Of a stretch of DNA of 64,000 nucleotides, positions 7,886 to 59,550 are shown piece by piece. Each line of letters starts with the position of its first letter. Within the stretch, counting starts at the first letter, position 1. Below the pieces are notes generated by a model. That model was not told the origin of the DNA and searched no databases. It saw only the letters and a list, made by a program, of their open reading frames with translations. Origin of the DNA: Candidatus Sumerlaeia bacterium (lineage in GTDB: Bacteria; Sumerlaeota; Sumerlaeia; MVZB01); assembly GCA_039683515.1 (NCBI GenBank), contig JBDKRG010000011.1:14328-78327 (forward strand). The letters run 5' to 3'. The position numbers and the translations under genes are program-made.

Positions 7886-7977
7886 TTTCTTAATTGTTAT
7901 TGGAATTGAATATGATTATTTTCCGCTTTTTTTGTTTCGAATTTCTTTCGGATTCTTTCCGATTTTGTCCGATTTCT
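7886..7977 (-). repeat. Copy A of the dispersed AT-rich intergenic element (GAAATCGG...GAAATTCGAAACAAA...), direct with respect to the queC-queF transcript
   Basis: The reverse complement reads agaaatcggacaaaatcggaaagaatccgaaagaaattcgaaacaaaaaaagcggaaaataatcatattcaattcc..., matching the copies at 9325, 17091, 20071, 25041, 45631, 45756 and 59461. Confidence 0.7.
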
Positions 7978-8703
7978 TCACTTCGCGCCGTTGCCCAGGA
8001 TCGCGTCCCAGTCGATCGGGACCTGGTACGGAACGGGATCCCTCACCCCCGCCTCGCGGAACCCCTTGAGCCGCAGCCGGCAGGCGTCGCAACGGCCGCA
8101 GGCGATCCCGTCGGCCGAGGGGCTGTAGCACGAAAACGTCAGGCCGTAGTCGACGCCGAGCTCGAGGCCGCGCCGGATGATGCTCGCCTTGCTCAGCTTC
8201 ATGAGCGGGGCGTGAATGCGCAGCGTGCGGCCCTCGACGCCCGACTTGGTCGCGAGGGCCGCGACTTTCTCGAACGCGGCGATGAACTCCGGACGGCAGT
8301 CGGGATAGCCCGAGTAGTCGATCGCGTTGACCCCGATGAAGATGTCGCTCGAGCCCAGGACCTCGGCCCAGCCCATCGCCAGCGACAGAAAGACGGTGTT
8401 GCGCGCGGGGACGTAGGTCGGCGGGATGCCGTGGCTGATCTCGGCCATCGGGCGGTCGTGCGGGACGGCGATGTCGGCGGTCAGGGCCGAGCCGCCGATC
8501 ACGCGCAGGTCCACCGGCACCACGATATGCTGGGCGACATGGAAATGGTCCGAGACGCGCTTGGCGGCCTCGAGCTCATAGCGGTGGCGCTGGCCGTAGT
8601 CGAACGTGATCGTGTACGGGTCGAACCCCTCGGTCTTGGCGATCGCCAGAACCGTCGTCGAATCCAACCCGCCGCTCGAAAGAATGACAGCCTTGTGAGC
8701 CAT
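7978..8703 (-). CDS. queC: 7-cyano-7-deazaguanine synthase QueC
   Basis: The PP-loop SGGLDSTT is present, together with the C-terminal Zn-binding cysteines CxxC...CGxCxxC. Confidence 0.95.
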
Positions 8704-8883
8704 GCCTGCGCCTCTCCACCGGTCATTCGGACCAAAACCAGTGTAAAGGCAGCCCCCGCGATTCTCACGAAAAAAGTTTTTCTTCCCCGCTTGCCTGGGT
8801 CGACGCGCGCTTCAATGTCAACGGACCCGGAGCGAATGCGCGGCGGCATCTCACGGGGCGAGCCATGTCGCCACCATGCGCGA

Positions 8884-9312
8884 TCAGGCAGCCTGCGCGT
8901 TTCCCTTCGAATTTCTCAGGCTTTGTTCGATGATCTGGACGAGCTCGAGGTCGGGTTCGGATTCCACGACGATCTTGTCGATATATTGATGGAGGTCCAG
9001 GCGCGTGAAGGCCCAGTCCTTGAAGGTATGGTGCGCGATGATGTGGCCCTGGTCGTCCTTGCCCCAGTAGACGGCGTGCCAGTTGTGGCCGCCGTGGACG
9101 AACTCGAGCTTTTGACCGCGGCGCAGGGAATCGATCGAGGACGGATGATGGGCGATCGTGGCGGGGGTCGGAGCGGGGCGAACGGTTTCATCGCCGTGAT
9201 CGGCGTCGGGCTTTTTTTCGCCCGGGGGCTTGTGTTCGCGGCCGGCGTTGGCGTCCCATTCCTCCTTCAGCACGTCGTATCGCATCAACTTCTCGACATC
9301 GAAAGTATCCAT
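8884..9312 (-). CDS. Hypothetical protein (142 aa; His-rich C-terminal region)
   Basis: The track ORF 8884..9384 extends through a repeat element. The plausible start is MDTFDVEKLM, preceded by GGAGGTG. No recognisable family (HGGHNWHAVYWGKDDQGHIIAHHTF). Confidence 0.45.
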   Translation of the reverse strand: MDTFDVEKLMRYDVLKEEWDANAGREHKPPGEKKPDADHGDETVRPAPTPATIAHHPSSIDSLRRGQKLEFVHGGHNWHAVYWGKDDQGHIIAHHTFKDWAFTRLDLHQYIDKIVVESEPDLELVQIIEQSLRNSKGNAQAA

Positions 9313-9324
9313 GCAGTTCACCTC

Positions 9325-9360
9325 CGGTCGGCGGTTCGAATCCTCGGTTTTGTTTCCTTG
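9325..9360 (-). repeat. Copy H (partial) of the AT-rich intergenic element, immediately upstream of the 8884..9312 start codon
   Basis: The reverse complement reads ggaaacaaaaccgaggattcgaacc, matching the family core GAAACAAAACCGAGGA. Confidence 0.5.
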
Positions 9361-9539
9361 TGTTAAGTTGTAATTATAGCCCAATTCCCAATAATGTCCA
9401 TGACATTATTGTTATTAGTCATAATCTAAATAATTATCAAAAGAGCTAAAATGAATGAATATAGACCAGCCCGCGTCCATGTCCGATTATAATAAAGAGA
9501 GAGGATCGGTCATTAAGATTCTTTTGTCTTAAGATTTAT

Positions 9540-10082
9540 TCATTGACGTTTACCCGCATTTTGAGTTTGCAACCCTTTTTCCAGGTTATAGAGCATGCCG
9601 CCGGGCGGCGCGGAGGGATCCGTCACGCCGGGCCGAAGCAATACCGTCACCTTCCGGCCCGAAACCGACGCTACAGGTTGTTCGAGTCCCTCGTCCTTGG
9701 CGTCCAGGTATTCGACCGCAAGTCGGGTCGACGAATCCCATTTCAGGTTGGCTCCGTAAGCGCGCGAATTTCGGACCGCCGCATACAGGAACGCAACCTG
9801 GCTTCCCTTTGCCTTTTTGCCGTGCGGCACGATGAAGATTGCATAGCCGAACGACGTTGTCGCGCCACCGTTGGACTCGACAAGAACGGCATCCAAAACC
9901 CCATCGGGAGAAACAACGCGCGCGACCTCGTCATGACTGGGACCGTCCAAAATTAGAACCAAACAGAAGAGGGCGTACGGCAACAAGCTGACCACTGCCA
10001 AAATCGAAACGACTGCGGCAATCTTTATGATTGCCGGCATCAAGATTCGTTTCGCAGAAATTCTAGCCAGATATTTTCGCAT
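9540..10082 (-). CDS. Hypothetical membrane-anchored protein (N-terminal transmembrane segment, about 130-aa extracytoplasmic domain)
   Basis: A hydrophobic N-terminal helix (IIKIAAVVSILAVVSLLPYALFCLVLIL) is followed by a soluble domain. No family recognised. It lies next to a very AT-rich spacer (9360-9545). Confidence 0.45.
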   Translation of the reverse strand: MRKYLARISAKRILMPAIIKIAAVVSILAVVSLLPYALFCLVLILDGPSHDEVARVVSPDGVLDAVLVESNGGATTSFGYAIFIVPHGKKAKGSQVAFLYAAVRNSRAYGANLKWDSSTRLAVEYLDAKDEGLEQPVASVSGRKVTVLLRPGVTDPSAPPGGMLYNLEKGLQTQNAGKRQ

Positions 10083-10093
10083 TCAATCAGGGG

Positions 10094-10969
10094 TCAATCC
10101 TTCTCCGCCTGGTGCGGGTCGAGGGCGGCGCGGAGGGACTCGCCGAGCGTCTGGAACAGGAACATCGTCAGGCAGATCGAGATCGCGGGGAAGGCCAGCA
10201 CGTGCGGGTGCGACATGAGCGCGTCGCGGCCCTCGGCGGCGAGCGTCCCCCACGAGGCGTGCGGCGCGGTCACGCCCAGGCCGATGAAGCTCAGGAACGA
10301 CTCGGTGAAGATCGCCTGCGGGATCATGAACGTGGCGGTGACGACGACCACGCCGGTCGTGTTGGGCAATATGTGCCGCCTGAAAATCCGCCAGAAACCG
10401 GCGCCGAGCGCGCGGGCGGCCTCGACGAACTCGCGCGTGCGCAGCTCGGCCACGCGGACGCGCACGACGCGGGCCATCTGGAGCCAGTAGACCAGCCCGA
10501 GCGCGATGAAGATATTGGTCAGCCGCGGGCCGGTCACGACCATCAGCGCGATGACGACGAGCAGGAGCGGCACGGCGTAGAGGAAATCGACGAGGCGCAT
10601 GAGCGCGGCCTCGACCAGTCCGCCGCGCAGGCCGGCGACGCCGCCGACGGTGACGCCGATGAGGAGGCTCACGAGCGCGCCCATCGCGCCGACGGCGAGC
10701 GAGATGCGCCCGCCGTACAGGACGCGCGTCAGCAGGTCGCGGCCGAGCGCGTCGGTCCCCATCCAATGCGCGGCGCTCGGGCCGGCATAGGTGTGGTAGA
10801 GGTCCTGCTCGCTTTCGGCGTAGGGGCTCAGCAGCGGGCCGATCAGGACGGTCAGGATCATGAGCATTAACCCGGCCAGCGCAACCCGGAACGCCTTGTC
10901 GCGGCGCATGCGCAGCCACCAGCGCGGCGCGCCGGCGGTCGAGCGGACCTGGGCGGGAGCCATCGTCAT
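10094..10969 (-). CDS. dppC: ABC transporter permease, DppC/OppC family
   Basis: The real protein begins MTMAPAQVRS... (291 aa) and carries the EAA-like motif region EAARALGAGFWRIFRRHILPN. The longer track ORF 10094..11893 is an out-of-frame extension. There is an ATGA start/stop overlap with the upstream permease gene. Confidence 0.85.
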   Translation of the reverse strand: MTMAPAQVRSTAGAPRWWLRMRRDKAFRVALAGLMLMILTVLIGPLLSPYAESEQDLYHTYAGPSAAHWMGTDALGRDLLTRVLYGGRISLAVGAMGALVSLLIGVTVGGVAGLRGGLVEAALMRLVDFLYAVPLLLVVIALMVVTGPRLTNIFIALGLVYWLQMARVVRVRVAELRTREFVEAARALGAGFWRIFRRHILPNTTGVVVVTATFMIPQAIFTESFLSFIGLGVTAPHASWGTLAAEGRDALMSHPHVLAFPAISICLTMFLFQTLGESLRAALDPHQAEKD

Positions 10970-11886
10970 CGCACGCGCGTCCTCGGATCGATCCATTTGG
11001 CGGCGCCGTCGGCAAACAGGTTCAAGCTGACGAGCAGGACCGTGTAGAACACGGTCAGGCCCATGATCATCGGGTAATTGCGGTTGCTGATCGAGTTGAC
11101 GAAATCGCGGCCGAGGCCGGGGATGTCGAAGATCAATTCCACGACGAACGAGCCGGTCATGATCGCGGCGGCCTGCGGGCCGAGGAACGCCAGCACCGGC
11201 GCGAGGATGTGCCGCATGGCGTGGTAGACGACGATGCGCCACGGGGGGACGCCCTTGGCCCGGGCGGTGCGCAGGAAATCGCTGCGCAGGACTTCGGAGA
11301 GCTCGCTGCGCACGAGCCGCGCCAGGTAGGCGGTCGGCAGCGCGGCAAGCGATAGCGCCGGCAGGACGTAGCCGCCCGACGCGGGGAACAGCCGCAGCTT
11401 CAGGGCAAACACGTAGAGCAAAAGGGTGGCGAGGATGAACGAGGGGATGGCGACGCCCGCCGAGGCGACCGTGGCGTTGAGGTGGTCGGGCCAGCGGCCG
11501 GGGCGCAGCGCGGCGGCCACGCCGATCGGGAAGGCAAGGATGAGCGCGAACGCCAGCGCGACCAGGCCGAGCTTGGCCGAAACCGGAAACCGCTGAGAGA
11601 TCAGTTCGCCGACGGAGCGGCCGGGGTGATCGTAGGACGGACCGAACCGGCCGGTCGCGGCGTCGCCAAGATAACGGGCGTATTGCTTCCACGCCGGCTC
11701 GTCGAGGTGGTAGTGGCGCTCGATCGCCTGCTGGACGGCGGCCGGGAGCTTGCGGTCGCGGCTGAACGGCCCGCCGGGGACGACGCGCATGAGCAGGAAC
11801 GTGGTCGTCGCCACGGCCCACGCCACCATCAGCACGACGAGCGCCGAGCGCAGGACAAGCCAGGCAAACCGCAGCGGTGTCTTCAT
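10966..11886 (-). CDS. dppB: ABC transporter permease, DppB/OppB family
   Basis: MKTPLRFAWLVLRSALVVL... begins at M35 of the track ORF; residues 1-34 are translated tandem repeat. Typical OppB BPD_transp_1 core (LRTARAKGVPPWRIVVYHAMRHIL). Confidence 0.85.
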   Translation of the reverse strand: MKTPLRFAWLVLRSALVVLMVAWAVATTTFLLMRVVPGGPFSRDRKLPAAVQQAIERHYHLDEPAWKQYARYLGDAATGRFGPSYDHPGRSVGELISQRFPVSAKLGLVALAFALILAFPIGVAAALRPGRWPDHLNATVASAGVAIPSFILATLLLYVFALKLRLFPASGGYVLPALSLAALPTAYLARLVRSELSEVLRSDFLRTARAKGVPPWRIVVYHAMRHILAPVLAFLGPQAAAIMTGSFVVELIFDIPGLGRDFVNSISNRNYPMIMGLTVFYTVLLVSLNLFADGAAKWIDPRTRVR

Positions 11887-11906
11887 CGGGCAAGCAGGAC
11901 CTCGGG

Positions 11907-11967
11907 TCGAATGGACGAAACGGGCCGAATGGACCGAATGGACCGAATGGACCGATTTGAACGGACC
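11907..11967. repeat. Tandem decamer (GAATGGACC(G/A)) x about 5 in the dppB 5' leader
   Basis: tcgaatggacgaaacgggccgaatggaccgaatggaccgaatggaccgatttgaacggacc. Confidence 0.8.
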
Positions 11968-12170
11968 TTCGGTTTTTACGCCAGTCAAATTTCGCTCATA
12001 AGTGAATCTTCATTCCGCAATTTGCAATCAACACGATCCGAAATTCCCAAAATGGTTGACGTTGATGGGGAAATCACCTATCACATTAATCAGGGTCCAA
12101 ACCCACCATGACACCAACGTGCGAGAAGTCATGAGGGGCAGCGGTCTGCTTGAGGGTTTGACAGGAGTTT

Positions 12171-12413
12171 TTGTTTGAAATGGGATACCGCGACTACGAA
12201 ATACCGATGGAGCTGTTCACCCGCCTTTCCGAAACCGTCCATCTGAATGACGATCAATTGCGCCGCCAGATTCAGAAGGGCGCCGGCGAGCCGATCTACC
12301 GCATCGATCAGCTCGAGCGCCTTTACGGTGACATGGCCTTGGAGCCGCTGATCAAACTGGAATTCGACCGGTTCGACATCCCGCGCCGCAACGGGAAGCG
12401 GAACCGGCGCTAA
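12171..12413 (+). CDS. Small hypothetical protein (80 aa)
   Basis: Clean GC3-rich codon usage and no overlap with a better gene: MGYRDYEIPMELFTRLSETVHLNDDQLRRQIQKGAGEPIYRIDQLERLYGDMALEPLIKLEFDRFDIPRRNGKRNRR. Confidence 0.4.
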   Translation: MFEMGYRDYEIPMELFTRLSETVHLNDDQLRRQIQKGAGEPIYRIDQLERLYGDMALEPLIKLEFDRFDIPRRNGKRNRR

Positions 12414-12438
12414 ACAGGTTTTCCTACCGGGGCAACGC

Positions 12439-13059
12439 ATGCGTTCCAAACTGATGCTGGCCGTCGTCGTCGCCGCGCTGGCGTGGGCCGCGGCCGCGTT
12501 GTATCAGCAATCGAACTGGAAAATCGTGAACAACCCGCCGCCGGCCGGGCCGATCGTCGCGCTCGGCGACAGCCTGACGTTCGGGTTCGGCGCCGACAAA
12601 GGCGGGTCCTACCCCGAACAGCTCGGCAAGCTGATCGGCCGCGCCGTCGTCAACCGGGGCGTCAACGGCGACAAGATCGCCGACGCCGCGGCTCGGCTCG
12701 ACAAGGACGTCCTCGCGCTCAAGCCGTCGATCGTCATTATCCTGCTGGGCGGCAACGACATCCTCACGCAGCAGCCGATGGACCAGAGCTTCAAGACGCT
12801 CGAGGGGATCGTGCGGCGCGTGCAGGGGCGCGGGGCGATGGTCGTTCTCGTCGGCCTGCGCGTCATCGCGCCGGTCGGCGGGGTCGGGGCGCGCTACCAC
12901 AAGCTCGCGCGCCAGACCGGCTGCTTGTTTGTCGACGACATCCTCGACGACATCTACGGCCAGCGCTCGCTCATGTCCGACCAGATCCACCCCAATACGA
13001 AGGGCTACAAGATCATGGCCGAGCGGGTCGCCGGCAAGCTGAAACCGTATATTAAATAA
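12439..13059 (+). CDS. SGNH/GDSL hydrolase (TesA/arylesterase-like), secreted
   Basis: A signal peptide is followed by the GDSLT block (ALGDSLTFG), GGNDIL and DQIHPNTKGY (DxxH). Confidence 0.85.
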   Translation: MRSKLMLAVVVAALAWAAAALYQQSNWKIVNNPPPAGPIVALGDSLTFGFGADKGGSYPEQLGKLIGRAVVNRGVNGDKIADAAARLDKDVLALKPSIVIILLGGNDILTQQPMDQSFKTLEGIVRRVQGRGAMVVLVGLRVIAPVGGVGARYHKLARQTGCLFVDDILDDIYGQRSLMSDQIHPNTKGYKIMAERVAGKLKPYIK

Positions 13060-13155
13060 GCATGATTGCGACCATGGGACCTATACGGTCGGGCCACGCT
13101 TGCAAGTCGACTCTGCGGATTTTATGGTATCTCATCTGGTTAAGGGGTAAGTGAC

Positions 13156-14082
13156 ATGAATTCCGTGCGCGTTGCCGTTGTGCAGGCCGGGGCCGTTCCG
13201 TTCAACACCGAAGCGTGCGTCGAGAAGGCCGTCGGGCTCATTCGCGAGGGGGCGGCCACGGGCGCCAAGGTCCTGGTATTCCCCGAGGCGTTCATCGTCG
13301 GCTACCCGAAAGGGCTCAACTACGGCCTGGCCGTCGGGACTCGCGACGACGCCGGGCGCGAGGAATTCCGGCTCTACCTCGACGCGGCGATCCAGGTGCC
13401 CGGCCCGCAAACGCGGCGCATCGGCGAGGCCGCGGCGGCGCACGGCGTTTACGTGGTGATCGGCGCGATCGAGCGCGAGGGGGGGACGTGCTACTGCACG
13501 GTCCTGTTCTTCGGCCCCGACGGCGCGCTGCTCGGCAAGCACCGCAAGCTCATGCCGACGGCGATGGAGCGCCAGATCTGGGGGTTCGGCGACGGCTCGA
13601 CGCTGACGGTCGTCGACAGCCCGTACGGCAGGATCGGCGCGGTCGTGTGCTGGGAGAACTACATGCCGATGCTGCGCATGGCGATGTATGCCAAGGGGGT
13701 CGCGCTCTACTGCGCGCCGACGGCCGACGACCGCGAGACGTGGCTCCCCACGATGCGCCACATCGCGCTCGAGGGCCGCTGCTTCGTTCTGGCCGCCAAC
13801 CAGTTCTTGCGCAAAAAGGATTTCCCCGACACCGTGCGCGTGACGATCGGCGAGACGCCGGACGCCGTCCTCATGAAGGGGGGCAGCATGATCGTCAACC
13901 CCCTGGGCAAGGTCCTGGCCGGCCCGGATTTCTCCGGCGAGACGATCCTCACCGCCGACCTCGACCTGGACGACATCGGCCGCGGCAAGTTCGACTTCGA
14001 CGTCGCCGGCCACTTCGCCCGGCCCGACGTGTTCCAACTGATCGTCAACGAAAAGCAGGCTCAGCCCGTCGTGACAAAGTAA
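13156..14082 (+). CDS. Nitrilase/cyanide-hydratase family carbon-nitrogen hydrolase
   Basis: The catalytic triad is present: E in FPEAF, K in HRKLMPT, and C in VCWENYMP. 308 aa. Confidence 0.9.
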   Translation: MNSVRVAVVQAGAVPFNTEACVEKAVGLIREGAATGAKVLVFPEAFIVGYPKGLNYGLAVGTRDDAGREEFRLYLDAAIQVPGPQTRRIGEAAAAHGVYVVIGAIEREGGTCYCTVLFFGPDGALLGKHRKLMPTAMERQIWGFGDGSTLTVVDSPYGRIGAVVCWENYMPMLRMAMYAKGVALYCAPTADDRETWLPTMRHIALEGRCFVLAANQFLRKKDFPDTVRVTIGETPDAVLMKGGSMIVNPLGKVLAGPDFSGETILTADLDLDDIGRGKFDFDVAGHFARPDVFQLIVNEKQAQPVVTK

Positions 14083-14089
14083 CGAACCA

Positions 14090-15667
14090 TCATCGGTATA
14101 AAAACCACTCGCGAGCGGCAGTTTGATTGATCGTGAGGCATAGGCTCCACAAGTCGCTGTTGTACTCGTTGTCTGCGGGATTGAGCGTGGCGGGAAAATC
14201 CCCATATGGTTGCGCCACGGTGAATCCGGCGTTCCATTCGCTTCCCTCGGCATAACTCGCCACGTCGGATGTCGAGTCGGTCTGCCATGCGAGCCAGTAT
14301 GTGCCCGGGCTGAGCTTGGCCAGCATATTATTGTGCTTCGGCGGCGTGACAACCCACGTGTTCGAGGTCTCGACGTCGCTCGGAATCGATTGCCAGAGAA
14401 GCTGCCGCGGCGAACTGTCGTCGTAGATGGCCAGACGCACATGGCCTCCGCCGGCATGCGCATAAAACCTCATGTCCTTGACGGTTGCCGGTTGAGTCAG
14501 GGTGACTTTGCTGGCGTGGAGCGTGTTTTTGTGAGTGTAGGCGACCTTTGCCAATGTTTGAGTCGTGAATGTGTTAAAATTGCCCATAATCCCATACATA
14601 TAGCCGTTTTCACGGTCGAGCCAGGACGGGTACAGCGTCCGGTTATCGTCAGGCGAGACGAACTTGCCGGCGATCGTAAAGTCCGCCAGGCGCACCCTGA
14701 TGACGTATCCCTGATAAGTGCTTCGTGTCGCAAAATAACCATAGCCATTCGACGGATCGATCAATGCAGCGATGAAATGGTATCCATAATAAACTTGTAT
14801 AAATCCGGCATACGAAAAATCGGACAATCGAACCCTCGCAATGAGCGCGCTCCCCATGATGGTGTCCATGGCGAAATATGCATAGCCGCCGGCCGGGTCG
14901 ATCGCGGCGCATTCAAACCTGCTTGTGTTGTGCGGCAACGTCAGCGTTCCCACGCGCGTGAAGTCCGAGAGCCGGATCTTGACGACCTTTCCTGGAAAAG
15001 CGCCCACGCCAAAATACGCAAAACCGGCTGATTCATCGAGAACGGCACAAAGTGGGCTTTCGCCCGCCTCAAGCGGCATCGTCTGCACGCGCGTAAAATC
15101 GGAGCTTCGAATTTTAACGATTTTTCCGCTGGTCGAGCCGAGTCCGAAATAAATATGCCTGTCGGATGGGTCGAAAAGGGAACAAGAAATATTTTTTTCA
15201 CCGCTAAGCGTCATGGATGAGAGCCGGGTCAGATCGGCAAGCCGCACGCGAACGATGATGGCCGGATCGGTATAGGCTGCAAGATAAAGGGTCCCCGAGG
15301 TCGGGTCGATAACGCCGCTGGGGAACCTGGTTTCGCCCGGATTCAGCATGAGCTCCTTTTCAATCGCCATGTCGGCAAACCTGATCTTTTTTACGATTCC
15401 GGGCGAACCGCCGGTGAGGTAATACACGTATCCATCCAACGGGCCAAACAAATGGGTTCCGCTGGTTGATCGAAGATCCGACTCGCGAACGAGCTGCATG
15501 CCGGCGTTGGGGTATGCGGTTGTTCCGGGGGTTGTGCTGCCAGCCGTCGCGGCGCCAAACGACTGGATCTGGAGAAGGATATACAACACCAGGAAAATGA
15601 TATGTCTGGCATTCAACGTCAGAGGCTCCGTCTTTAGGCTCGTCCCACCGAACAGTTTATATATCAA
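14090..15667 (-). CDS. Secreted YVTN-type beta-propeller repeat protein with a C-terminal extra domain
   Basis: Signal peptide. About 6-7 repeats of approximately 45 aa (G.VVKIRLSDFTRV.TLTL...IDP..GYAYF). GC content is noticeably lower than the surrounding DNA. The true start may be an internal TTG (NARHIIFLVLYILLQ...). Confidence 0.6.
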   Translation of the reverse strand: MIYKLFGGTSLKTEPLTLNARHIIFLVLYILLQIQSFGAATAGSTTPGTTAYPNAGMQLVRESDLRSTSGTHLFGPLDGYVYYLTGGSPGIVKKIRFADMAIEKELMLNPGETRFPSGVIDPTSGTLYLAAYTDPAIIVRVRLADLTRLSSMTLSGEKNISCSLFDPSDRHIYFGLGSTSGKIVKIRSSDFTRVQTMPLEAGESPLCAVLDESAGFAYFGVGAFPGKVVKIRLSDFTRVGTLTLPHNTSRFECAAIDPAGGYAYFAMDTIMGSALIARVRLSDFSYAGFIQVYYGYHFIAALIDPSNGYGYFATRSTYQGYVIRVRLADFTIAGKFVSPDDNRTLYPSWLDRENGYMYGIMGNFNTFTTQTLAKVAYTHKNTLHASKVTLTQPATVKDMRFYAHAGGGHVRLAIYDDSSPRQLLWQSIPSDVETSNTWVVTPPKHNNMLAKLSPGTYWLAWQTDSTSDVASYAEGSEWNAGFTVAQPYGDFPATLNPADNEYNSDLWSLCLTINQTAAREWFLYR

Positions 15668-15806
15668 CCCATGTCGGTTGACAATCGCTAACCGGCGAGG
15701 ATTCTGGTTGCATGAGTGCCGGGTGGCGTTGTGAGGTGAATGGGTGTAACCTGAATGTGTAAGCGCTTTGCGACGGCGATAATGGATTTAAGGAAGGGCC
15801 CTGGAA

Positions 15807-17090
15807 TTGGAAGAGATCAAGGCAAATGCGGAGCGGCGGCAGCGGGCGTTGCTGATCGGGATCCACGCCGAGGGGACCTCGCGCGAGGAGGCCGAGGACC
15901 ACGTCGAGGAGCTGGCGAGCCTGACCGACACGATGGGGGCCGAGGTCGCCGGCATGGAAATCGTGCGGATGGGGCGGCCGACGCCGCATTTCTACCTGGG
16001 CAGCGGCAAGGCCGAGGAGATCAAGGCGATCGCCGAGGCCGAGGAGGCCGACGTGCTGATCTTCGACTTCGACCTGAGCCCGAGCCAGCAGCGCAACTGG
16101 GAAAAATTCACCGAGCGCGCCGTGATCGACCGGCAGGAGGTCATCCTCGACATCTTCGCGAGCCGCGCCCAGACGCGCGAGGCGCGGCTGCAGGTCGGCC
16201 TCGCGCGCATGGAATACAGCCTGCCCCGGCTGCGGCGCGCGTGGACGCACCTGGAGCGCCAGCGCGGCGGCGCGGGCCTGCGCGGCGGCCCCGGCGAACT
16301 CCAACTCGAAGTCGACCGCCGCGCCGCGATGGAGCGCATCGCGCGGTTCAAGCGCGAGCTCAAGCAGGTCCGCATGCAGCGCCAGGTGCAGCGCAAGAGC
16401 CGCTCGACGCGGCCGATCCCGTCGGCGGCGATCGTCGGCTACACCAACGCCGGCAAAAGCTCGCTGCTGCGGGCACTGACCGGCGCCGACGTGTTCATCG
16501 AGGACAAGCTGTTCGCGACGCTCGACCCGACGACGCGCCGCATTGAACTTTCCAACCGCCAGCCGCTGCTGCTGACCGACACCGTGGGGTTCATCCGCAA
16601 GCTGCCGCACGACCTCGTCGAGGCGTTCAAGGCGACGCTGGAAGAGGCCGCCATCGCCGACTTCATCGTCCACGTGCTCGACGTGAGCCACCCCAAGATC
16701 GAGGAGCATTACGCCGTCACGAACGAGGTCCTGAAAGATCTGCACGCCGTGCACAAGAAGACGATCCTCGTCCTGAACAAGGCCGACGTCGACCACGACC
16801 CGCTCATCCACGCGCGGATGGCCCGGCACAACCCGCTGTGCTACGAGGTCTCGACGCACACGGGCCAGGGTCTCGAGGTGCTGCGCGAGGCGATGGCGTC
16901 ACACTTCGTGCTGCCGATGGAACGGTTCAGGCTGCACATCCCGCATGGCCGGTTCGACGTGGTCGACCTCGTCCACCGCGAGGGCGAAGTCCTGACCCAG
17001 AAGCACGACGAAACCGGCGTGTGGCTCGAGGCGGACCTGCCGGTGAGGTTCAAGGCGCAGTTCGAGGAATTTATAAAAGAAAAATCCTAA
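15807..17090 (+). CDS. hflX: GTPase HflX
   Basis: An HflX N-domain is followed by a G-domain (GYTNAGKSSLL, DTVGF, NKAD). TTG start in the track. Confidence 0.9.
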   Translation: MEEIKANAERRQRALLIGIHAEGTSREEAEDHVEELASLTDTMGAEVAGMEIVRMGRPTPHFYLGSGKAEEIKAIAEAEEADVLIFDFDLSPSQQRNWEKFTERAVIDRQEVILDIFASRAQTREARLQVGLARMEYSLPRLRRAWTHLERQRGGAGLRGGPGELQLEVDRRAAMERIARFKRELKQVRMQRQVQRKSRSTRPIPSAAIVGYTNAGKSSLLRALTGADVFIEDKLFATLDPTTRRIELSNRQPLLLTDTVGFIRKLPHDLVEAFKATLEEAAIADFIVHVLDVSHPKIEEHYAVTNEVLKDLHAVHKKTILVLNKADVDHDPLIHARMARHNPLCYEVSTHTGQGLEVLREAMASHFVLPMERFRLHIPHGRFDVVDLVHREGEVLTQKHDETGVWLEADLPVRFKAQFEEFIKEKS

Positions 17091-17160
17091 ATTCGAATAT
17101 CGAAATCCGAATATCGAAATCCTAAACAAATCCGAATCTAGAAATTCAAATAATATTCTC
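17091..17160 (+). repeat. Copy B of the AT-rich intergenic element, directly after the hflX stop
   Basis: attcgaatatcgaaatccgaatatcgaaatcctaaacaaatccgaatctagaaattcaaataatattctc. Confidence 0.6.
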
Positions 17161-17455
17161 GTCGCAGAGGGGCAGAGATTGGCAGAGAGCGCGGAGAAGA
17201 ACATATTTTTCTTCTCTGCAAAACTCTGCGTTCTCTGCGACAAAATCTTGCTTTGAATATATTCCTGTCGCGGAGTGGCAGAGAGCGCAGAGAAAAACAT
17301 TTTTTCTTCTCTGCAAAACTCTGCGTTCTCTGCGACAAAATCTTGTTTTGAATATATTCCTGTCGCGAAGGGGCAGAGAGCGCGGAGAAAAAACATATTT
17401 TTCTTCTCCGCATCTCGGCAAAACTTCGCGTTCTCTGCGACAAAAGTTTTATTCA
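17159..17455. repeat. Tandem array of 3 units of approximately 95-107 bp, each an internal hairpin (GTCGCAGAG...CTCTGCGAC family)
   Basis: The units begin at about 17159, 17267 and 17360. The shared core is gcagagagcgc(g/a)gagaa(a/g)aacat(a)tttttcttctctgcaaaactctgcgttctctgcgacaaaatcttg(c/t)tttgaatatattcc. It lies between the convergent hflX and MFS genes. Confidence 0.85.
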
Positions 17456-18726: not shown

Positions 18727-18862
18727 GGATCACACCTGCAAAAAAACCTGAACAGAAAGAAGAGATGAGACATGAAAGATGAGAGATGAGATCGAAATCC
18801 CATCCCCCACACCTCAACCCCAACATAGTAGCATCGCGCGCGCGGAGGTTCGATGAATTTGA

Positions 18863-20070: not shown

Positions 20071-20150
20071 ATTCCTTAAGCCCGAAATTCGAATATCGAA
20101 ACCCGAAACAAATTCTAATTTAGAAAATTCGAAATTCAAAAAAACTTTTA
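20071..20150 (+). repeat. Copy C of the AT-rich intergenic element, abutting the mgtC start codon (opposite orientation to the transcript)
   Basis: attccttaagcccgaaattcgaatatcgaaacccgaaacaaattctaatttagaaaattcgaaattcaaaaaaac. Confidence 0.6.
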
Positions 20151-34625: not shown

Positions 34626-34628
34626 TGA

Positions 34629-46945: not shown

Positions 46946-46966
46946 ACGAGCACGAGCACGAATGCG

Positions 46967-48106
46967 CTACTTCTTGTCTTTCCAGAACAGCTCGACCCAC
47001 GCGACCTTCACCACCGCGGCGATCGGGACGGCCACGATCATCCCGCCGATGCCCCCCTGCGCGCCGATCACCAGCGCGGCCATGACCATCAGCGGATGCA
47101 GGCTGGCGTGCTTGCCGACGATGTACGGCTGCAGGATGAACCCCTCATTGGCCTGGATGGCCATGTTGCCGAGCAGGAGAACGCCGAGATAGGCGCCGCG
47201 CGCATTCCAGTCCGGATACTGGCTGCTGAACAGGATCCATAACACGCCCGGAATAAATCCGGCCAGCGGCCCCAGGTACGGGATGAAGTTGAGCAGGCCC
47301 GCGACAAACCCGATCAGGACGGCATACTGCCGCATCCCGATGACCGCCAGCAGGAGCGCCATCAGGCAGCCGTTGATGGCGCAGACGGTCAACTGGCCGC
47401 GCAGGAAGCCGCCGACCGCGCGATCGGCCTGGACCATCACTTTCCAGATCCGCTCGCGGTCGCCCGCCGGCAACAGCTTTTTCAGGATCGGCGGGATGTG
47501 GTCGAAATCGACAAGCAGGTAAAACGCGATAATGCCGACGATCGACAGCGACCCGGCGAGGCCGATGATCGACGCGATGCTGATCGCGAGGCCGCCCGCG
47601 ACGCTTTTCATCGCCGTCACCGAACCGGTGGCAACGGTGCGGCCCGGGGCGTTGCCGCCCGAGAACCGCCTGAGGAGGTCTTCGATCTGGCCGAGGTCGC
47701 CGCTCAGCGAATCCTTGATCGCCGAGCGCGTCGGCTCGTCGAGCCAGGCCGCCCCCCACTTGTCAACCATCACCGTCAGCCATGCGAGCAGCTCATGGAC
47801 GCCCGCGGAAAGCTGCTGGTACAAGACCGGGATGAGCCACAGCATCAGGCCGATCAGCACGGCCACGACGAGGCCCGCCAGGACAAAGATGCCCGCGACG
47901 CGCCCGAGCCTGAGCCGGCGCTGAACGAACAACACGACGGGATGGAAGACGTAAGCGAGGATGAGCGCCAGCAGGAACGGCCCGATCACGTCCATGATCG
48001 TCGTCAGGATCGGCCCGACCTGCCGCAGGATGAAAACGGCCAGCGCAACGATCGCGAACGCCGCGAGCGTCTTGCGCCATGCGAGGGGAAGAGAGTTTTC
48101 CGTCAT
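46967..48106 (-). CDS. AI-2E family transporter (PerM/YdiK, UPF0118)
   Basis: The real start is MTENSLPLAWRKTLAAFAIV... The upstream 62 codons of the track ORF are a translated heptamer array. About 8 transmembrane helices. Confidence 0.85.
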   Translation of the reverse strand: MTENSLPLAWRKTLAAFAIVALAVFILRQVGPILTTIMDVIGPFLLALILAYVFHPVVLFVQRRLRLGRVAGIFVLAGLVVAVLIGLMLWLIPVLYQQLSAGVHELLAWLTVMVDKWGAAWLDEPTRSAIKDSLSGDLGQIEDLLRRFSGGNAPGRTVATGSVTAMKSVAGGLAISIASIIGLAGSLSIVGIIAFYLLVDFDHIPPILKKLLPAGDRERIWKVMVQADRAVGGFLRGQLTVCAINGCLMALLLAVIGMRQYAVLIGFVAGLLNFIPYLGPLAGFIPGVLWILFSSQYPDWNARGAYLGVLLLGNMAIQANEGFILQPYIVGKHASLHPLMVMAALVIGAQGGIGGMIVAVPIAAVVKVAWVELFWKDKK

Positions 48107-48111
48107 GAAAA

Positions 48112-48153
48112 GAGTCCTGAGTCCTGGGTCCTGGGTCCTGGGTCCTGGGTCCT
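48112..48153. repeat. Heptamer array GAGTCCT x2 + GGGTCCT x4 immediately upstream (6-48 nt) of the AI-2E transporter start
   Basis: gagtcctgagtcctgggtcctgggtcctgggtcctgggtcct. On the coding strand this is AGGACYC x6, each unit containing the SD-like core AGGA. Confidence 0.9.
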
Positions 48154-48240
48154 GAGGACGAAGTTTGTTGGCTCGGGCGGAATTAGTCAAGTCCCTGCTT
48201 AGCGGTGCGTGTCCGTGCCCCGTCCGTGTTTGTCCGTGTA

Positions 48241-48270
48241 CAACAAAAATCCCAGGGCGTTGACCCTGGG
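48241..48270 (-). terminator. Rho-independent terminator of the IclR regulator gene
   Basis: Minus strand: CCCAGGG-tcaacg-CCCTGGG followed by ATTTTTGTTG. Confidence 0.7.
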
Positions 48271-48314
48271 ATTGAATTGTTTCCCTCAGCACTCAGGACT
48301 CAGGACGATTCTTC

Positions 48315-51440: not shown

Positions 51441-51621
51441 TTCGCAGTCCCGCCTTCGGGCGGAATCTGAACATGAAATCAGGCCCGAACGGCCCCCGGG
51501 TCGTCCGGGCCTGATTCGTTCAGACCATTTTCAAAGTGGATGATGCGTTCGATTACGATTACGATTACGAGCACGAGCACGAGCACGACGCTCTACATAC
51601 ATACAGGAGATATCCCTCACC

Positions 51622-52863
51622 ATGACTGTCGACCGCGCGTTGATTCACAAGATCGCCGCCGAAGAGCTTGAGGCCGGCGCCAAATTCCTGATGGACATGA
51701 TCCGCTACCCGTCGACCCCGGGCCAGGAAAACGAGCTGATGCACTTCATCGAGAAGGAAATCAAGCCGCTGGCCGACAAGGTCGAACGCGTCGGGTTCCC
51801 GGCCGATTTCCGCAACGACCCCGAATACTCGTTCCCGATCGAGGGGATCGACTACGAGGGGCGCTTCAACCTGCGCGTGGTCATCGGCGACGACAGCGTC
51901 AAGTCCCCCTCGCTCATCTTCAACGCGCACACCGACGTCGTCCCGGCGTCCGAAAACCAGCCGCGGGCGTTCGACCCCGAGCGCAAGGACGGCGTCATTT
52001 ACGGCCGCGGCGCGTGCGACGACAAAGGGAGCGTGGCCACGCTCTACATGCTGGCGCGCATCCTCAAGCGCCTGCCGGCCAAGCCCAAGGCCAAGATCGT
52101 CCTGCACCTGGTCAACGAGGAGGAAAACGGCGGCAACGGCACGCTCAACATGATCCGCACGGGCGAGAAGGCCGACGCATTCGTCGTCATGGAGCCCACG
52201 CGCGGCCGCCTGATGCCGTCGGTGCGCGGGGCGGTCTGGTTCCGCGTGAAATTCCGCGGCCTCGCCGGCCACGTCGGCAGCGCCGGCAAGACCGTCAGCG
52301 CGCTCAAGCTCGCCGTGGAGGCGATCGAGCTGCTCGAGCAGTTCCACGCCGAGACGCTCGCCGCCAGCCGCGGCATCCAGTTCTTCGACGACTACCCCAA
52401 CCCGATGCCGATCAACTTCGGCCGCCTCAACGCGGGCGTGTGGCCGGCCTCGGCCCCCAACGCGGCCGTCCTCGAGGGCGTCATGGGCCTGCTGCCCAAC
52501 CTCACGCGCGAGCAGATCATGGAGGGCATGGAGCGCACGCTGCGCGAGCGCGGCTCGGAAAAGCTGCGCGACAACTTCAGCTTCGAGTTCATGTACCGCC
52601 ACGACTCGCACGTGACCGACCCGGGCCACAAGGTCGTCAAGACCCTCCAGAAGGCCGTCCAGAACGCCGGCATGTCGGGCGAGCTGACCGGCATGGTCGC
52701 CTCGTGCGACTCCAACTACTACTCGAACTTCCTCAAGATGCCGGGCGTGGTCTTCGGCCCCGGCGACCTGATCGTGGCCCACGGCGCCGACGAGCAGATC
52801 GAAGTCGCCCAGCTGGCGCAGGCCGCCTCGGCCATGGCGCAGCTCGCCTGCGAATGGGAATGA
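51622..52863 (+). CDS. M20 family metallopeptidase/deacylase (ArgE/DapE-like)
   Basis: HTDVV, GACDDKG and NEEENGG metal-binding motifs. Confidence 0.85.
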   Translation: MTVDRALIHKIAAEELEAGAKFLMDMIRYPSTPGQENELMHFIEKEIKPLADKVERVGFPADFRNDPEYSFPIEGIDYEGRFNLRVVIGDDSVKSPSLIFNAHTDVVPASENQPRAFDPERKDGVIYGRGACDDKGSVATLYMLARILKRLPAKPKAKIVLHLVNEEENGGNGTLNMIRTGEKADAFVVMEPTRGRLMPSVRGAVWFRVKFRGLAGHVGSAGKTVSALKLAVEAIELLEQFHAETLAASRGIQFFDDYPNPMPINFGRLNAGVWPASAPNAAVLEGVMGLLPNLTREQIMEGMERTLRERGSEKLRDNFSFEFMYRHDSHVTDPGHKVVKTLQKAVQNAGMSGELTGMVASCDSNYYSNFLKMPGVVFGPGDLIVAHGADEQIEVAQLAQAASAMAQLACEWE

Positions 52864-52898
52864 TGAAAGATGAATGATGAATGATGAATGATGAAAAC

Positions 52899-52925
52899 GG
52901 CCGGGGAAGACCTCCCCGGCTTTTT
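52899..52925 (+). terminator. Rho-independent terminator after the M20 gene
   Basis: GGCCGGGGAagacCTCCCCGGC followed by TTTTT. It is embedded in a GAATGATGA-family repeat. Confidence 0.85.
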
Positions 52926-55718: not shown

Positions 55719-55847
55719 ATGCAGTAGCCCGAGCGTCAGCGAGGGACTCGGCCGATACGCAATCAGAACCGCAAGTTGAAATTCGAAATCTGAACGAATT
55801 GAATTCCACTAAGGCGAAGTCCCTCGCTGACGCTCGGGCTACTGCAT
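55719..55847. mobile_element. MITE-like palindromic element: perfect 30-bp terminal inverted repeats flanking a 69-nt AT-richer loop
   Basis: The left arm is ATGCAGTAGCCCGAGCGTCAGCGAGGGACT (55719-55748). The right arm is its exact reverse complement (55818-55847). The loop contains gaaattcgaaatctgaacgaattgaattcc, related to the AT-rich element family. Confidence 0.7.
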
Positions 55848-57179: not shown

Positions 57180-57295
57180 TCGCGCAGCGATCGCAGAGAA
57201 ACAGAGACCATCGAATTTTGCTATCTGTTTATTCCTGTCTTCAAAAATTCCTCAGCATCTCTGCCTAACTCTGCTCCTCTGCGGCAAGAATCAGT
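57180..57295. repeat. Solo copy of the GCAGAG...CTCTGC hairpin family, directly after the radical SAM gene
   Basis: gcgatcgcagagaaacagagaccatcgaattttgctatctgtttattcctgtcttcaaaaattcctcagcatctctgcctaactctgctcctctgcggc. Compare the units at 17159-17455. Confidence 0.6.
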
Positions 57296-57331
57296 TTGTG
57301 GCTGCCGCTCCGAGCCGAAGCGGCCTGCCGG

Positions 57332-57679
57332 CTATGCGCAGCGTTCGGCGTCGACCGGCTGCAGGTTCATCATGTATTCGAGTTCCTCGACCGCCACGCG
57401 GAACTGAACGAGGCGGTTCCAGCGCCGGCCGTGCGGCGTGGCGTCGATCGTGACGCTCAAGTCGGCCAGCCGAGGGAACAGCCCGCGCAACCGGCGGCCC
57501 AGCTCGGCCGTCTCGTCATGGAAATATTGGCCGAGGCGGCGATGCCGGCGCAGGCCGATCCAGTGGAACGACAGGATGACCTGCCCCCCCTCCTCGCGCA
57601 CGGACAAGTTCGAAATGACGATTTTCTGGCGGTGCAAGGCGGCGGTTACGATGTATTCCTGGTCACATGGATTTTCCAT
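57332..57679 (-). CDS. Hypothetical protein (115 aa) co-transcribed with the stand-alone response regulator
   Basis: Start at MENPCDQEYIV. The upstream part of the track ORF is an Arg/Pro-rich shadow. No family recognised. Confidence 0.4.
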   Translation of the reverse strand: MENPCDQEYIVTAALHRQKIVISNLSVREEGGQVILSFHWIGLRRHRRLGQYFHDETAELGRRLRGLFPRLADLSVTIDATPHGRRWNRLVQFRVAVEELEYMMNLQPVDAERCA

Positions 57680-57711
57680 GTCACGCTCCTGTTGGCTTGA
57701 ATTTGGAACGG

Positions 57712-58107
57712 TCACTGTACGGCTTGCAACGAATCGGACGGATACATTGCCAGGTCGAGGGCATGTTTGATTTCGCACGGCGTCGCCGTCTTGCTGATCA
57801 GGTCCACGACCCCTTCGTTCAGGTAGTCGACCCACGTCCTCAGGTTCGGCATGTCCGACATGACGATCAGCTGGCTTTGGCGGCGATGGTCGCGCAGCCA
57901 TTCCAGGCAACACTTGGGCCGGCTGTTGAGGAGATCCTCGTCGAGCATGACGATGTCGAACGGCTCGGTTTCCAACAGGCCCTGGGCCCCTTCCCACGAT
58001 TGCGCCCACTGGGCCTTGAGGCCGAAATGCCGGATCACATCGCTCATGCCGCGATACGTCGGGTAGTCGTTCACGATCAAGAGCGCTGATAATCTTTTAT
58101 TTGCCAT
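57712..58107 (-). CDS. Single-domain response regulator (CheY-like receiver)
   Basis: The acidic pocket is in LIVNDYP. The phospho-acceptor is in DIVMLDEDL. The T/S is in LIVMSD and the K in DLISKTATP. Confidence 0.8.
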   Translation of the reverse strand: MANKRLSALLIVNDYPTYRGMSDVIRHFGLKAQWAQSWEGAQGLLETEPFDIVMLDEDLLNSRPKCCLEWLRDHRRQSQLIVMSDMPNLRTWVDYLNEGVVDLISKTATPCEIKHALDLAMYPSDSLQAVQ

Positions 58108-58245
58108 TTAACCTGTTCTCCCCGCCGACAGCCGTCCATCGTTTGTCCGAGCTGATACCACCGAGTCTCCACAAACCCCGTTCGAAGCGCTATCGGGGCA
58201 AGTCCTATTTTCCGGTCGGGGTTGAAACTATTTCATGGCTGATCC

Positions 58246-59460
58246 ATGATGGCTGCCTGGACGCGAACCCGACCGAATCCGGAACCGAGGAAATTCATGC
58301 GCGGACCGAATCACGAGAGTTTTCCGCGAACGCGGGCGCAACTCGAAGAGATCGAGGATTTCACCCTTGCCCCGTACGCGATCCGCGCCGGCCGCAGCCA
58401 CGGCCGCGACGTCGAGGAGCAGCCGGCCGCCATGCGCACCGAATTCCAGCGCGACCGCGACCGCATCCTGCACTGCGCCGCGTTCCGCCGGCTCGAATAC
58501 AAGACCCAGGTCTTCGTCACGCACGAGGGGGACTACTTCCGCACGCGCCTGACCCACACGCTCGAAGTGGCGCAGATCGCCCGCAGCATCGCGCGCACCC
58601 TCGGGCTGAATTCGGATCTGATCGAGGCCATTTCGCTTGCCCACGACCTCGGACACACGCCGTTCGGCCACACCGGCGAGTCGGTCCTGAACGAGCTTCT
58701 CGCCGGCGAAGGGGGCTTCGAGCACAACGCCCAGAGCCTGCGCGTCGTCGAGGTCCTCGAGGAGCGATTCTGCGACAGGCCCGGCCTCAACCTGACGTGG
58801 GAAGTGCGCGAGGGGATCGCCCGCCACTCCAAATCCAACACGCCGGCCGTCACGCGATACGTCAACGGCAACCAGCCCTCGCTCGAGGCGCAGGTCGCCG
58901 ACCTCGCCGACGAGATCGCCTACAACCACCACGACCTCGACGACGCGCTCGGGATGGGGCTCCTCCCCGTCGATGCGCTGCGCGACGTCGGCTGGCTGTG
59001 GGAGATCTGGCGGACCGAGGCCGAGCGCTTCCCGGATTCCAGCCCGCGCCACCGCCAGAACCGGTTCCTCGGCGCGCTGATCGAAACCATGATCGACGAC
59101 ACGATCGAGGCGACCGCCGACGAGCTCAACCGAAACGGGATCGACTCGCCCGAGGCGGTGCTGGCGTTCCCCAGGCGGCTCGCGGTCTTCAGCCCGGCCG
59201 TGCGCGTTCATCAGGACGGCCTGCGCAAGTTCCTGCTCGAGCGCGTCTACCACCACCCCAGGACGCTCAAGATGCAGTACAAGGCGGCCGGGTTCTTCAA
59301 GAAGCTGTTCGAGCTCTACCGCGAGCAGCCCGACCTGCTCCCCGTCGAATGCCAGGCCATGATCGGGAAATGGGGGCTCATGCGCGTCCTGACCGATTAC
59401 CTCTCGGGGATGACCGACCGGATGTGCATGGAGCAGTATAAGGAACATTTTGAATCGTAA
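58246..59460 (+). CDS. dGTPase-family HD-domain phosphohydrolase
   Basis: RDRDRILHCAAFRRLEYKTQVF...THTLEVAQIARSIA...HDLGHTPFGH. The probable start is the internal MRGPNHESF. Confidence 0.9.
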   Translation: MMAAWTRTRPNPEPRKFMRGPNHESFPRTRAQLEEIEDFTLAPYAIRAGRSHGRDVEEQPAAMRTEFQRDRDRILHCAAFRRLEYKTQVFVTHEGDYFRTRLTHTLEVAQIARSIARTLGLNSDLIEAISLAHDLGHTPFGHTGESVLNELLAGEGGFEHNAQSLRVVEVLEERFCDRPGLNLTWEVREGIARHSKSNTPAVTRYVNGNQPSLEAQVADLADEIAYNHHDLDDALGMGLLPVDALRDVGWLWEIWRTEAERFPDSSPRHRQNRFLGALIETMIDDTIEATADELNRNGIDSPEAVLAFPRRLAVFSPAVRVHQDGLRKFLLERVYHHPRTLKMQYKAAGFFKKLFELYREQPDLLPVECQAMIGKWGLMRVLTDYLSGMTDRMCMEQYKEHFES

Positions 59461-59550
59461 TCGGTTAGAATCGGAAAGAATCGGCCGGAAATTCGAACCA
59501 AAAATTGAGGAAAAAGAAAAAACCAAATTAAGATAATGATTCAAAAGGAG
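59461..59550 (+). repeat. Copy G of the AT-rich intergenic element, spanning from the dGTPase stop to the SD of the CE7 esterase gene
   Basis: tcggttagaatcggaaagaatcggccggaaattcgaaccaaaaattgaggaaaaagaaaaaaccaaattaagataatgattcaaaaggag. Confidence 0.7.

Follow-up and report, generated by a model that had tools for sequence, protein, structure and literature searches.

The closest described system to the repeats reported here is the intervening sequence (IVS) of 23S rRNA. That of Coxiella burnetii has been described as selfish; its terminal inverted repeats form a stem that is cut by RNase III, and it carries an S23p open reading frame (ORF) with a poor Shine-Dalgarno sequence (SD) and, immediately 5′ of the ATG, a variable number of tandem GACAGAT heptamers (PMC4990558). 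The IVS ORFs of Leptospira, Xanthomonas and Brucella are homologous to that of Coxiella (PMC4990558). Here we analyze a family of short AT-rich intergenic repeats, which we call arms, in 64,000 nucleotides from a Candidatus Sumerlaeia bacterium (contig JBDKRG010000011.1; this whole stretch is referred to as the window), together with their counterparts in metagenomes. The family takes three forms: full cassettes in which two inverted arms enclose a PF05635 gene, ORF-less pairs of inverted arms, and solo arms. On balance, we consider it probable that the modules in the window represent this cassette’s terminal inverted repeat in solo, paired or diverged form and are selfish, IVS-like derivatives resembling miniature inverted-repeat transposable elements (MITEs). 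The window itself contains degenerate, ORF-less copies only, and the cassette ends are a variant of a known system rather than a categorically new one.

Like the 23S IVS with its S23p ORF (PMC4990558), the full cassette encodes a PF05635/TIGR02436 protein, has terminal inverted repeats that pair into a stem around the ORF and heptamers directly upstream of an ATG whose SD is poor or absent, and is regarded as selfish and horizontally spread. Unlike the IVS, which occupies helix 25 or 45 of 23S rRNA, all arm copies lie between protein-coding genes, and Rfam scans detected no rRNA in the window or the other loci covered. The arms also differ in length (~66 nt, as opposed to a 28-bp stem) and in their heptamer (CGAAnnn instead of GACAGAT), and the arm family is mostly ORF-less and of high copy number.

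In their general features, the arms also resemble MITEs, ERIC and Correia repeats in being short, non-coding and multi-copy, with inverted ends that have hairpin potential, and in lying in spacers and showing insertion polymorphism. A further likeness is that they are presumably co-transcribed with their neighbors, because they sit inside operons and have no terminator features. MITE families are usually confined to one genus, whereas the arm sequence is conserved across phyla; also unlike MITEs, the long form encodes a four-helix-bundle protein as its only ORF and no known transposase. With repetitive extragenic palindromic (REP) sequences and REPINs, which are mobilized by RAYT transposases (PMC3116915, PMC3733652), the arms share their arrangement as two inverted units with a short spacer, their intergenic location and their many copies; unlike the palindromic REP unit of 20-40 nt, however, they are non-palindromic 66-nt strings of CGAAnnn that have no GTAG/CGTC tag and whose solo copies do not fold. 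No RAYT gene was seen in the 64 kb, in which no systematic search for one was made.

Heptamer repeats have a precedent in the TAACTGA repeats of Beggiatoaceae, cyanobacteria and Bacteroidetes, which are intergenic and near start codons; their horizontal spread was suspected, “but no mechanism is evident”, and the paper makes no link to PF05635 (PMC4679880). The arms have in common with these repeats, and with the cyanobacterial STRR heptamers, a 7-nt periodicity, an intergenic location near starts and a patchy cross-phylum distribution. However, both of those are near-perfect tandem heptamers of variable number and mostly one orientation, whereas the arm heptamers are degenerate, are fixed in order and length, and are usually paired with an inverted copy.

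Repeat copies in the window and in metagenomes

The G+C content of the window is 64.4%, lower than the ~68% that the original prediction, made from the sequence alone, had given for the surrounding genome, and there are 28 short low-GC islands, mostly intergenic. That prediction had described nine AT-rich modules in both orientations. Alignment confirms modules with a common core on both strands, but resolves them into seven copies and one fragment, of two subtypes (Table 1). Their similarity goes beyond AT-rich composition: the GAAATTCGAAACAAA core (at most two mismatches) has seven occurrences in the 3.4 kb of AT-rich spacer, where 0.11 would be expected under a null drawn solely from the window’s low-GC islands in which 0 of 1000 draws reached the observed count. 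Relative to whole-window shuffles, GAATC..GAAATTCGAAACAAA-type matches numbered 13 vs 1.0 and 4 vs 0.08. The modules are a genuine repeat family, and purely compositional similarity is rejected. A related core that had been placed in the loop of a palindrome at 55719-55847 gave no significant match to the canonical or the variant profile; this palindrome, GC-rich with arms of 35 nt that are 94% complementary and a loop of 59 nt that is richer in AT, lies outside the arm family.

Table 1. Arm copies in the window (HMM, hidden Markov model; z, folding of the copy as RNA relative to shuffles)
Feature	Position	Strand	Evidence
Variant-type solo arm	7886-7977	-	variant HMM E=1.1e-14; unstructured, z=-0.37
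Arm fragment	9325-9360	-	GAAACAAAACCGAGGA, 16-nt exact match to copy 45631
Canonical-type solo arm	17091-17160	+	metagenome-arm profile match 17100-17150, E=1.1e-7; unstructured, z=+0.39
Canonical-type solo arm	20071-20150	+	metagenome-arm profile match 20078-20139, E=3.9e-5
Variant-type solo arm	25041-25130	+	variant HMM E=5e-15; unstructured, z=+1.5
Variant-type arm, left half of pair	45631-45718	+	variant HMM E=6.3e-17
Variant-type arm, right half of pair	45756-45837	-	variant HMM E=2.3e-13
Variant-type solo arm	59461-59550	+	variant HMM E=7.3e-17; unstructured, z=+1.8

Five copies (7886, 25041, 45631, 45756 and 59461) align without gaps over ~88 nt with the shared pattern AATCGG..GAATCGG..GAAATTCGAAACAAA(W)CCGAGGAAA..AATCATTC; among the DNA compared, this variant subfamily was seen solely in the window. 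Copies 17091 and 20071 share 86% identity over 44 nt; with the variant group they have in common only the central AAAT(T/C)C(G/T)AAACAAAT. The 17091 copy is made of ordered heptamers (CGAATAT/CGAAATC ... AAACAAATCCG), and the canonical arm as a whole, of ~66 nt, is a fixed order of degenerate CGAAnnn heptamers: AAATyCG AAATyCG AATATCG AAATTCG AAACAAATCCG AAwTTCA AATGACC AAAAyTC AAAAC. Tandem Repeats Finder reports a period of 7/14 at 17089-17145 and 20083-20141, with matches of just 66-80%; the five variant copies have a period of 10, not 7, with 5′ halves of the form AATCGGAAAG (period ~10). The core of variant copy 25041 nevertheless matches the canonical-arm profile (E=3.7e-4). Copies 17091 and 20071 are ordinary members of a very widespread family, and the five variant copies a local variant that retains its most conserved segment.

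The extent of that family is seen from the 19-mer AAATTCGAAACAAAWCCGA of the arm, which is present in at least 120 stretches of JGI metagenome contigs against a chance expectation of ~15 (rough arithmetic); contigs bearing arms have a GC content of 0.34 to 0.69. Conservation extends to the sequence flanking the 19-mer, with a sharp 5′ edge 21 nt upstream and then ordered degenerate heptamers, the number and order of which are fixed across the wider family. A canonical profile built from 115 metagenome arms matches the queC-queF spacer of two relatives of the window genome (L012 and L013, discussed below) with E=7.3e-7. The AAATTCGAAACAAAWCCGA-family scan of IMG/VR returned zero matches among 2.9 million viral contigs, and plasmid and phage searches gave no match. 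Scanning GTDB genomes with GAATCN6AAATTCGAAACAAA, a pattern modeled on the window variant that the canonical GAATATCG arm escapes, yielded just 9 single chance matches in unrelated AT-rich taxa. In the literature searched, the core sequence was not found in any paper, and nothing specific was found on repeats of Planctomycetes/Omnitrophica.

The usual form is a + arm, a short loop and a - arm (125-170 nt), which occupies a spacer, often between co-directional genes; sizes overall are 66-95 nt for arms and 125-200 nt for pairs, and paired elements, of which there are 56 in the loci examined, form long hairpins. In the window there are one pair and six solo arms. Its only paired element is indeed the tail-to-tail palindrome that had been described at 45631-45837 (50 nt, 72% complementary), which as RNA folds into an imperfect hairpin of ~190 nt (-78.7 kcal/mol, z=-7.3), and the window’s solo copies show no excess of structure over shuffles (z from -0.9 to +1.8). 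A promoter scan found no sigma-70-like promoter or promoter consensus at any copy, and at none is there an intrinsic terminator (G+C-rich stem-loop plus T run) on the transcribed strand; a terminator reading is ruled out, as copies sit inside operons. No Rfam family at gathering score covers the element in the window and 13 loci, where the scan detected only tRNA and Acido-Lenti-1, both elsewhere than the arms; in E-value mode, only far sub-threshold long-hairpin miRNA models appeared.

The predicted contacts with stop and start codons are present. Copies abut the stop codons of hflX (17088-17090), an aldo/keto reductase (25036-25038), an HD-domain (dGTPase-like) gene (59458-59460) and, on the minus strand, yicC (45838-45840), and they reach the SD or start codon of queF, the 8884-9312 gene and an AXE1 esterase. 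Copy 7886 occupies the whole spacer between the queC stop (7978) and the queF start (7885/7873) and is sense to both genes, and the fragment immediately precedes the SD and start codon of the 8884-9312 gene, the call for which was taken from an identical Logan contig (SRR15035646_20849, reached via queC and identical to window positions 1-16619). Copies 17091 and 25041 begin directly after the hflX and aldo/keto reductase stops, with a convergent gene next in each case; copy 59461 spans the interval from the HD-domain stop to the esterase SD/start (59559), and the paired element fills the yicC|coaX spacer. Copy 20071 is antisense to both flanking minus-strand genes: it lies between the mgtC start (20066, minus strand) and the stop (20207) of the upstream gene, whose strand (20207-~22100) was read from its codon-position GC pattern. 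The in-sense solo arms directly upstream of a start codon are those of queF, the AXE1 esterase and the 8884 gene, and host genes downstream of arms retain their own SD.

The ORF-bearing cassette

The earlier statement that no copy encodes a conserved ORF is correct within the window, but full-length relatives carry a PF05635/TIGR02436 gene. At loci L023, L049 and L131, the arms are 350-430 nt apart and enclose an ORF of 121 aa, giving a full cassette (arm, ORF, inverted arm) of ~475 nt. The protein matches PF05635 (“23S rRNA-intervening sequence protein”, 3.5e-12), TIGR02436 (“four helix bundle protein”, 2.8e-18) and, as the sole match of a PDB profile search, 2RLD (E=3.5e-20). In the full cassette, the arm runs directly into the ORF’s ATG with no SD; the inner part of the arm (...AATGACCAAAA...) contains this ATG and the codons that follow it (MTK.QNSK.YDLEDR). 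When the L140 cassette is folded, the terminal arms pair around the ORF (-128 kcal/mol, z=-3.1).

At least 7,951 relatives of this protein subfamily are found at E <= 1e-20, and relatives that are 75-86% identical occur in metagenome-assembled genomes (MAGs) named Desulfobacterales, Nitrospirae, and Gamma- and Deltaproteobacteria. All three further protein-relative loci that we examined are flanked by the same arms. One cassette lies between proB and proA on a Deltaproteobacteria chromosome (CP070660.1), another, with the same arms, in a Nitrospirae MAG, and another between nuoK and nuoL in a Gammaproteobacteria MAG that also has an ORF-less pair between nuoH and nuoI; canonical copies are seen within nuo, proBA and mcsAB operons. 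Altogether, an arm pair encloses the ORF in nine loci representing six distinct insertion sites (Deltaproteobacteria, Nitrospirae, Gammaproteobacteria and unassigned metagenome contigs). PHROGs and PADLOC searches with the 121-aa protein gave no meaningful match. Locus L086 contains a second, distant PF05635 gene (6528-6929, 40% identical to the canonical one), which is preceded by a heptamer palindrome of its own at 6380-6550 (TCATTTC... / ...AATGCTAAATGTAAATGACAA; AATGnnn units); this hints that heptamers are specific to individual PF05635 protein subfamilies.

When cassettes are compared, the ORF is saturated at synonymous sites (proportion of synonymous differences, pS, 0.45-1.0; nonsynonymous, pN, 0.06-0.26), and dN/dS is ~0.1 where computable. 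Arm identity is 0.54-0.97 as compared with 0.39-0.70 at third codon positions, a comparison that omits the ATG side for L023, whose ORF starts ~55 nt inside the arm. Conservation is higher in the arms than at synonymous sites of the gene, and selection thus acts on the arm sequence as such. Within an element, the two arms differ systematically: at variable columns, their identity is 0.320, vs 0.389 +/- 0.016 for random partners (56 pairs; 1000/1000 shuffles), mixed pairs of one GAATATCG-type and one GAAGCACG-type arm number 25 where 12.2 are expected, and like-with-like pairs are correspondingly depleted (3 observed vs 12.2). The element thus has left and right ends that differ, and its stem contains a conserved 3-nt mismatch. 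Both end types are kept in ORF-less pairs, as expected if these were derived from cassettes by internal deletion.

Avd, the accessory protein of diversity-generating retroelements (DGRs), has been described as a pentameric barrel that carries a positive charge and is “similar to S23 ribosomal proteins”; it binds stem-loop RNA via flipped-out bases contacted by all five protomers (bioRxiv 10.1101/2023.10.23.563531). By analogy, it offers a model for how a PF05635 protein might read a hairpin with periodic features and mismatches. Unlike DGRs, the cassettes are seen with no adjoining reverse transcriptase or template/variable repeats, and the likeness to Avd is taken from the literature; the PDB profile search gave no Avd match, and the predicted structure of the 121-aa protein (pLDDT 54) was too poor for a fold search.

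Filled and empty sites, and the competing explanations

Gain and loss of sites is evident among close relatives. Three syntenic relatives of the window genome (L011, L012 and L013) were identified through their QueC homologues. The queC-queF spacer is 92 nt with a variant arm in the window, 105 nt with a canonical-type arm (...AAATTCGAATATTCTAAATTCGAAACAAATCCGAAAGAATTC...) in L012 and L013, and 18 nt and empty in L011. L011 and L012 are sisters (their QueC proteins are 90% identical, and each is 83-84% identical to that of the window), which implies that the site was either lost in L011 or filled twice.

A similar pattern is seen around locus L124, which is assigned to Candidatus Omnitrophota because its lysyl-tRNA synthetase (LysRS) is 90-95% identical to named proteins. 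There, ORF-less pairs lie at ABC ATPase|aminotransferase and at mcsA|mcsB. In L137 (LysRS 91% identical), both sites are empty, with genes that overlap or have 11 nt between them; in L139 (LysRS 79% identical), the ABC ATPase|aminotransferase site is empty and the mcsA|mcsB site holds a palindrome of a different heptamer. The latter palindrome (L139 14715-14835, Candidatus Gorgyraea atricola) consists of CCAATGA/CCAATTA units where L124 has the CGAAnnn element, and its CCAATGA unit is the complement of the cyanobacterial STRR heptamer TTGGTCA.

If the arms are IVS-like cassette ends, most copies would have lost the ORF to leave an arm, a short loop and an inverted arm, much like a MITE, and the elements would be selfish and mobile. 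Transcribed pairs would form a long A:U-rich stem with conserved mismatches that is predicted to be cut by RNase III, as in the 23S rRNA IVS. The solo arms of the window are probably tolerated remnants, a few of which may have been co-opted as unstructured A-rich leaders. Of the roles named in the original prediction, that of a REP/MITE-like selfish element is the one supported, by the inverted pairs, sharp ends, presence/absence at orthologous sites, cross-phylum spread and lack of orientation bias, although the family is neither REP-like in sequence nor a classical MITE.

Several observations weigh against the cassette reading. There is no PF05635 gene within the 64-kb window, so the link to the cassette rests on arm homology, and the ORF is present in just nine of ~130 arm-bearing loci. 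The variant 5′ halves are unlike the canonical heptamers; homology between variant and canonical arms is read from a core of 15-20 nt, from the architecture that both have and from the queC-queF site, which is orthologous. Neither a target-site duplication nor a transposase was found, mobility being deduced from presence/absence alone; the filled and empty sites compared are too diverged for reading a duplication, and the arm flanks have no conserved base beyond a weak T/A preference at position -22. The empty site of L011 could be a deletion, and the strong nucleotide-level conservation of the arms could reflect a host function.

Such a function might be that of a host cis-acting RNA module: a leader or trailer that is unstructured, rich in A and poor in G, has a YC dinucleotide at 7-nt intervals and serves as an SD-independent translation enhancer, a ribosome standby site (through S1 binding) or a Rho loading site. 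Nucleotide-level selection on the arms would fit, as would the cassette arm that meets its ORF’s ATG with no SD, the low structure of solo copies compared with shuffles (z up to +1.8), the fact that 5/6 window solo copies are sense to the neighboring gene and touch stop or start codons, and the precedent of TAACTGA repeats near start codons in Beggiatoaceae, for which a translational role was proposed (PMC4679880). We nonetheless find this explanation unlikely. Solo arms between co-directional genes in the metagenome loci comprise 15 in sense and 11 in antisense orientation, gene pairs at arm sites are of the same types as in the background of all spacers, and both copy 20071 and copy L012 2273-2425 are antisense; moreover, downstream host genes have their own SD, the usual form is palindromic and not a single-stranded tract, and orthologous sites are empty in close relatives, where the genes simply overlap. 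The UP-element or ribosome-standby role in the original prediction fares no better, as it leaves antisense copies, copies between convergent genes and empty orthologous sites unexplained. Somewhat less probable again is a binding array for a host DNA- or RNA-binding protein (nucleoid-associated or a global regulator) that recognizes CGAA every 7 nt: it would account for ordered heptamers conserved across phyla beyond neutral expectation, in a genome whose spacers hold many other short-unit arrays, but it comes with no candidate protein, the same element is found in at least four phyla of very different GC, and its sites can be dispensed with, being empty in relatives, and lie next to genes of unrelated function. 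A discrete unit of fixed length that is associated with one small ORF fits an element better.

We give very little credence to two further explanations. That the modules are small RNA genes or independent transcription units, as the original prediction had also allowed, agrees with their being intergenic, conserved and repeated, but is contradicted by the lack of promoter and terminator consensus and of Rfam families reported above, where the sub-threshold matches were generic long-hairpin miRNA models, and by solo copies that are structureless and found in both orientations. That they are a convergent by-product of AT-rich composition and replication slippage, with no common origin, might be suspected in a window full of unrelated short tandem arrays, some of which differ at an orthologous spacer of relatives; however, the AT-rich-spacer null accounts for 0.11 of the 7 observed cores, a non-identical heptamer order, sharp ends and a 19-nt exact core recur in at least 120 contigs irrespective of their GC (0.34-0.69), and matches are absent from the viral contigs. 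All of these explanations are less likely than that of IVS-like cassette ends.

A bolder version of the cassette reading, which we put forward tentatively and with more doubt than belief, is that the arms and their PF05635 protein constitute an unrecognized kind of mobile cassette that has spread over many phyla and is the source of the ORF-bearing 23S IVSs. Genomes would then be seeded with ORF-less palindromes and solo arms; the protein, a pentamer, would read its own folded arm pair in an Avd-like manner via the 7-nt register and the GAATATCG/GAAGCACG mismatch, and would be the element’s mobility or maintenance factor. The other heptamer palindromes of the window, and perhaps STRR/TAACTGA, would be sister families with PF05635 partners of their own. 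Three long-standing questions would come together in one testable element: the origin and movement of 23S rRNA intervening sequences, the role of the very abundant four helix bundle/S23p proteins, and the scatter of heptamer repeats through the intergenic regions of unrelated bacteria. It provides a short RNA/DNA ligand under selection and a 121-aa protein partner for testing, and naturally filled and empty sites in essential operons (nuo, proBA, mcsAB) provide a measure of its effect on polycistronic mRNA. In the annotation of GC-rich MAGs, the arms account for many AT-rich islands and contig breaks, as well as for many small ORFs that are spurious.

Other short-unit arrays

Nearly every spacer of the window genome holds some family of short-unit arrays in inverted pairs. 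GAATGAT heptamer arrays at 34521-34640, 52858-52896 and 63332-63470 form a second dispersed family, unrelated in sequence to the arms; two are palindromes of an array and an inverted array, and the third adjoins a GC hairpin and T run at 52899-52921. GAGATGA/TCTCATC arrays occupy three spacers (18753-18791, +; 32139-32169, -; 37072-37105, -) and make 87% complementary pairs. GCAGAGA/TCTCTGC arrays are found at 17160-17412, 57180-57290 and 60960-61000; at 17180-17412, immediately 3′ of the 17091 arm, a 95-nt palindromic unit occurs in 2.4 tandem copies (92% matches). TCCGCAA/TTGCGGA heptamers lie at 33224-33253 (100% matches), 36961-36985 and 25130-25170, one set directly after tRNA-Leu (36870-36955).

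AGTCCTG/GTCCTGG heptamers occur at 23256-23287, inside a PMT_2 glycosyltransferase reading frame, and at 48114-48154 together with 48285-48306. The 48114 array has 5.9 copies (97% matches), and its inverted partner is 130 nt away, around a GC hairpin at 48248-48273; given the array and its partner, the 46967-48292 ORF call is suggested to be too long, with the real start near 48107. Additional short-unit palindromes at 46762-46961, 51550-51588, 29965-30090 and 31215-31270 include one with CGATTA/CGAGCA/ACGACGC arms and (ATGGGACCG)x4.6 in the loop, one with CACGAAA arms and a ACGCCAAG hairpin. The spacer between a divergent 77-aa gene and a permease (window 11908-11955, L012 7150-7190, L011 3875-3915) holds a different tandem array in each genome, namely (CGAATGGAC)x5.3, CTCCGTG units and ATAGGTC-type units; arrays thus turn over quickly at a fixed “slot”.

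Two further features of the window were noted in passing. An Acido-Lenti-1 RNA motif (RF01687) lies at 27117-27162 on the + strand, within the span of a minus-strand ORF (26402-29869), and scores 48 bits against a gathering score of 37. At 62831-63278, there are two tandem small DUF5989 (PF19451) genes whose DNA is a 128-nt direct repeat, 75% identical.

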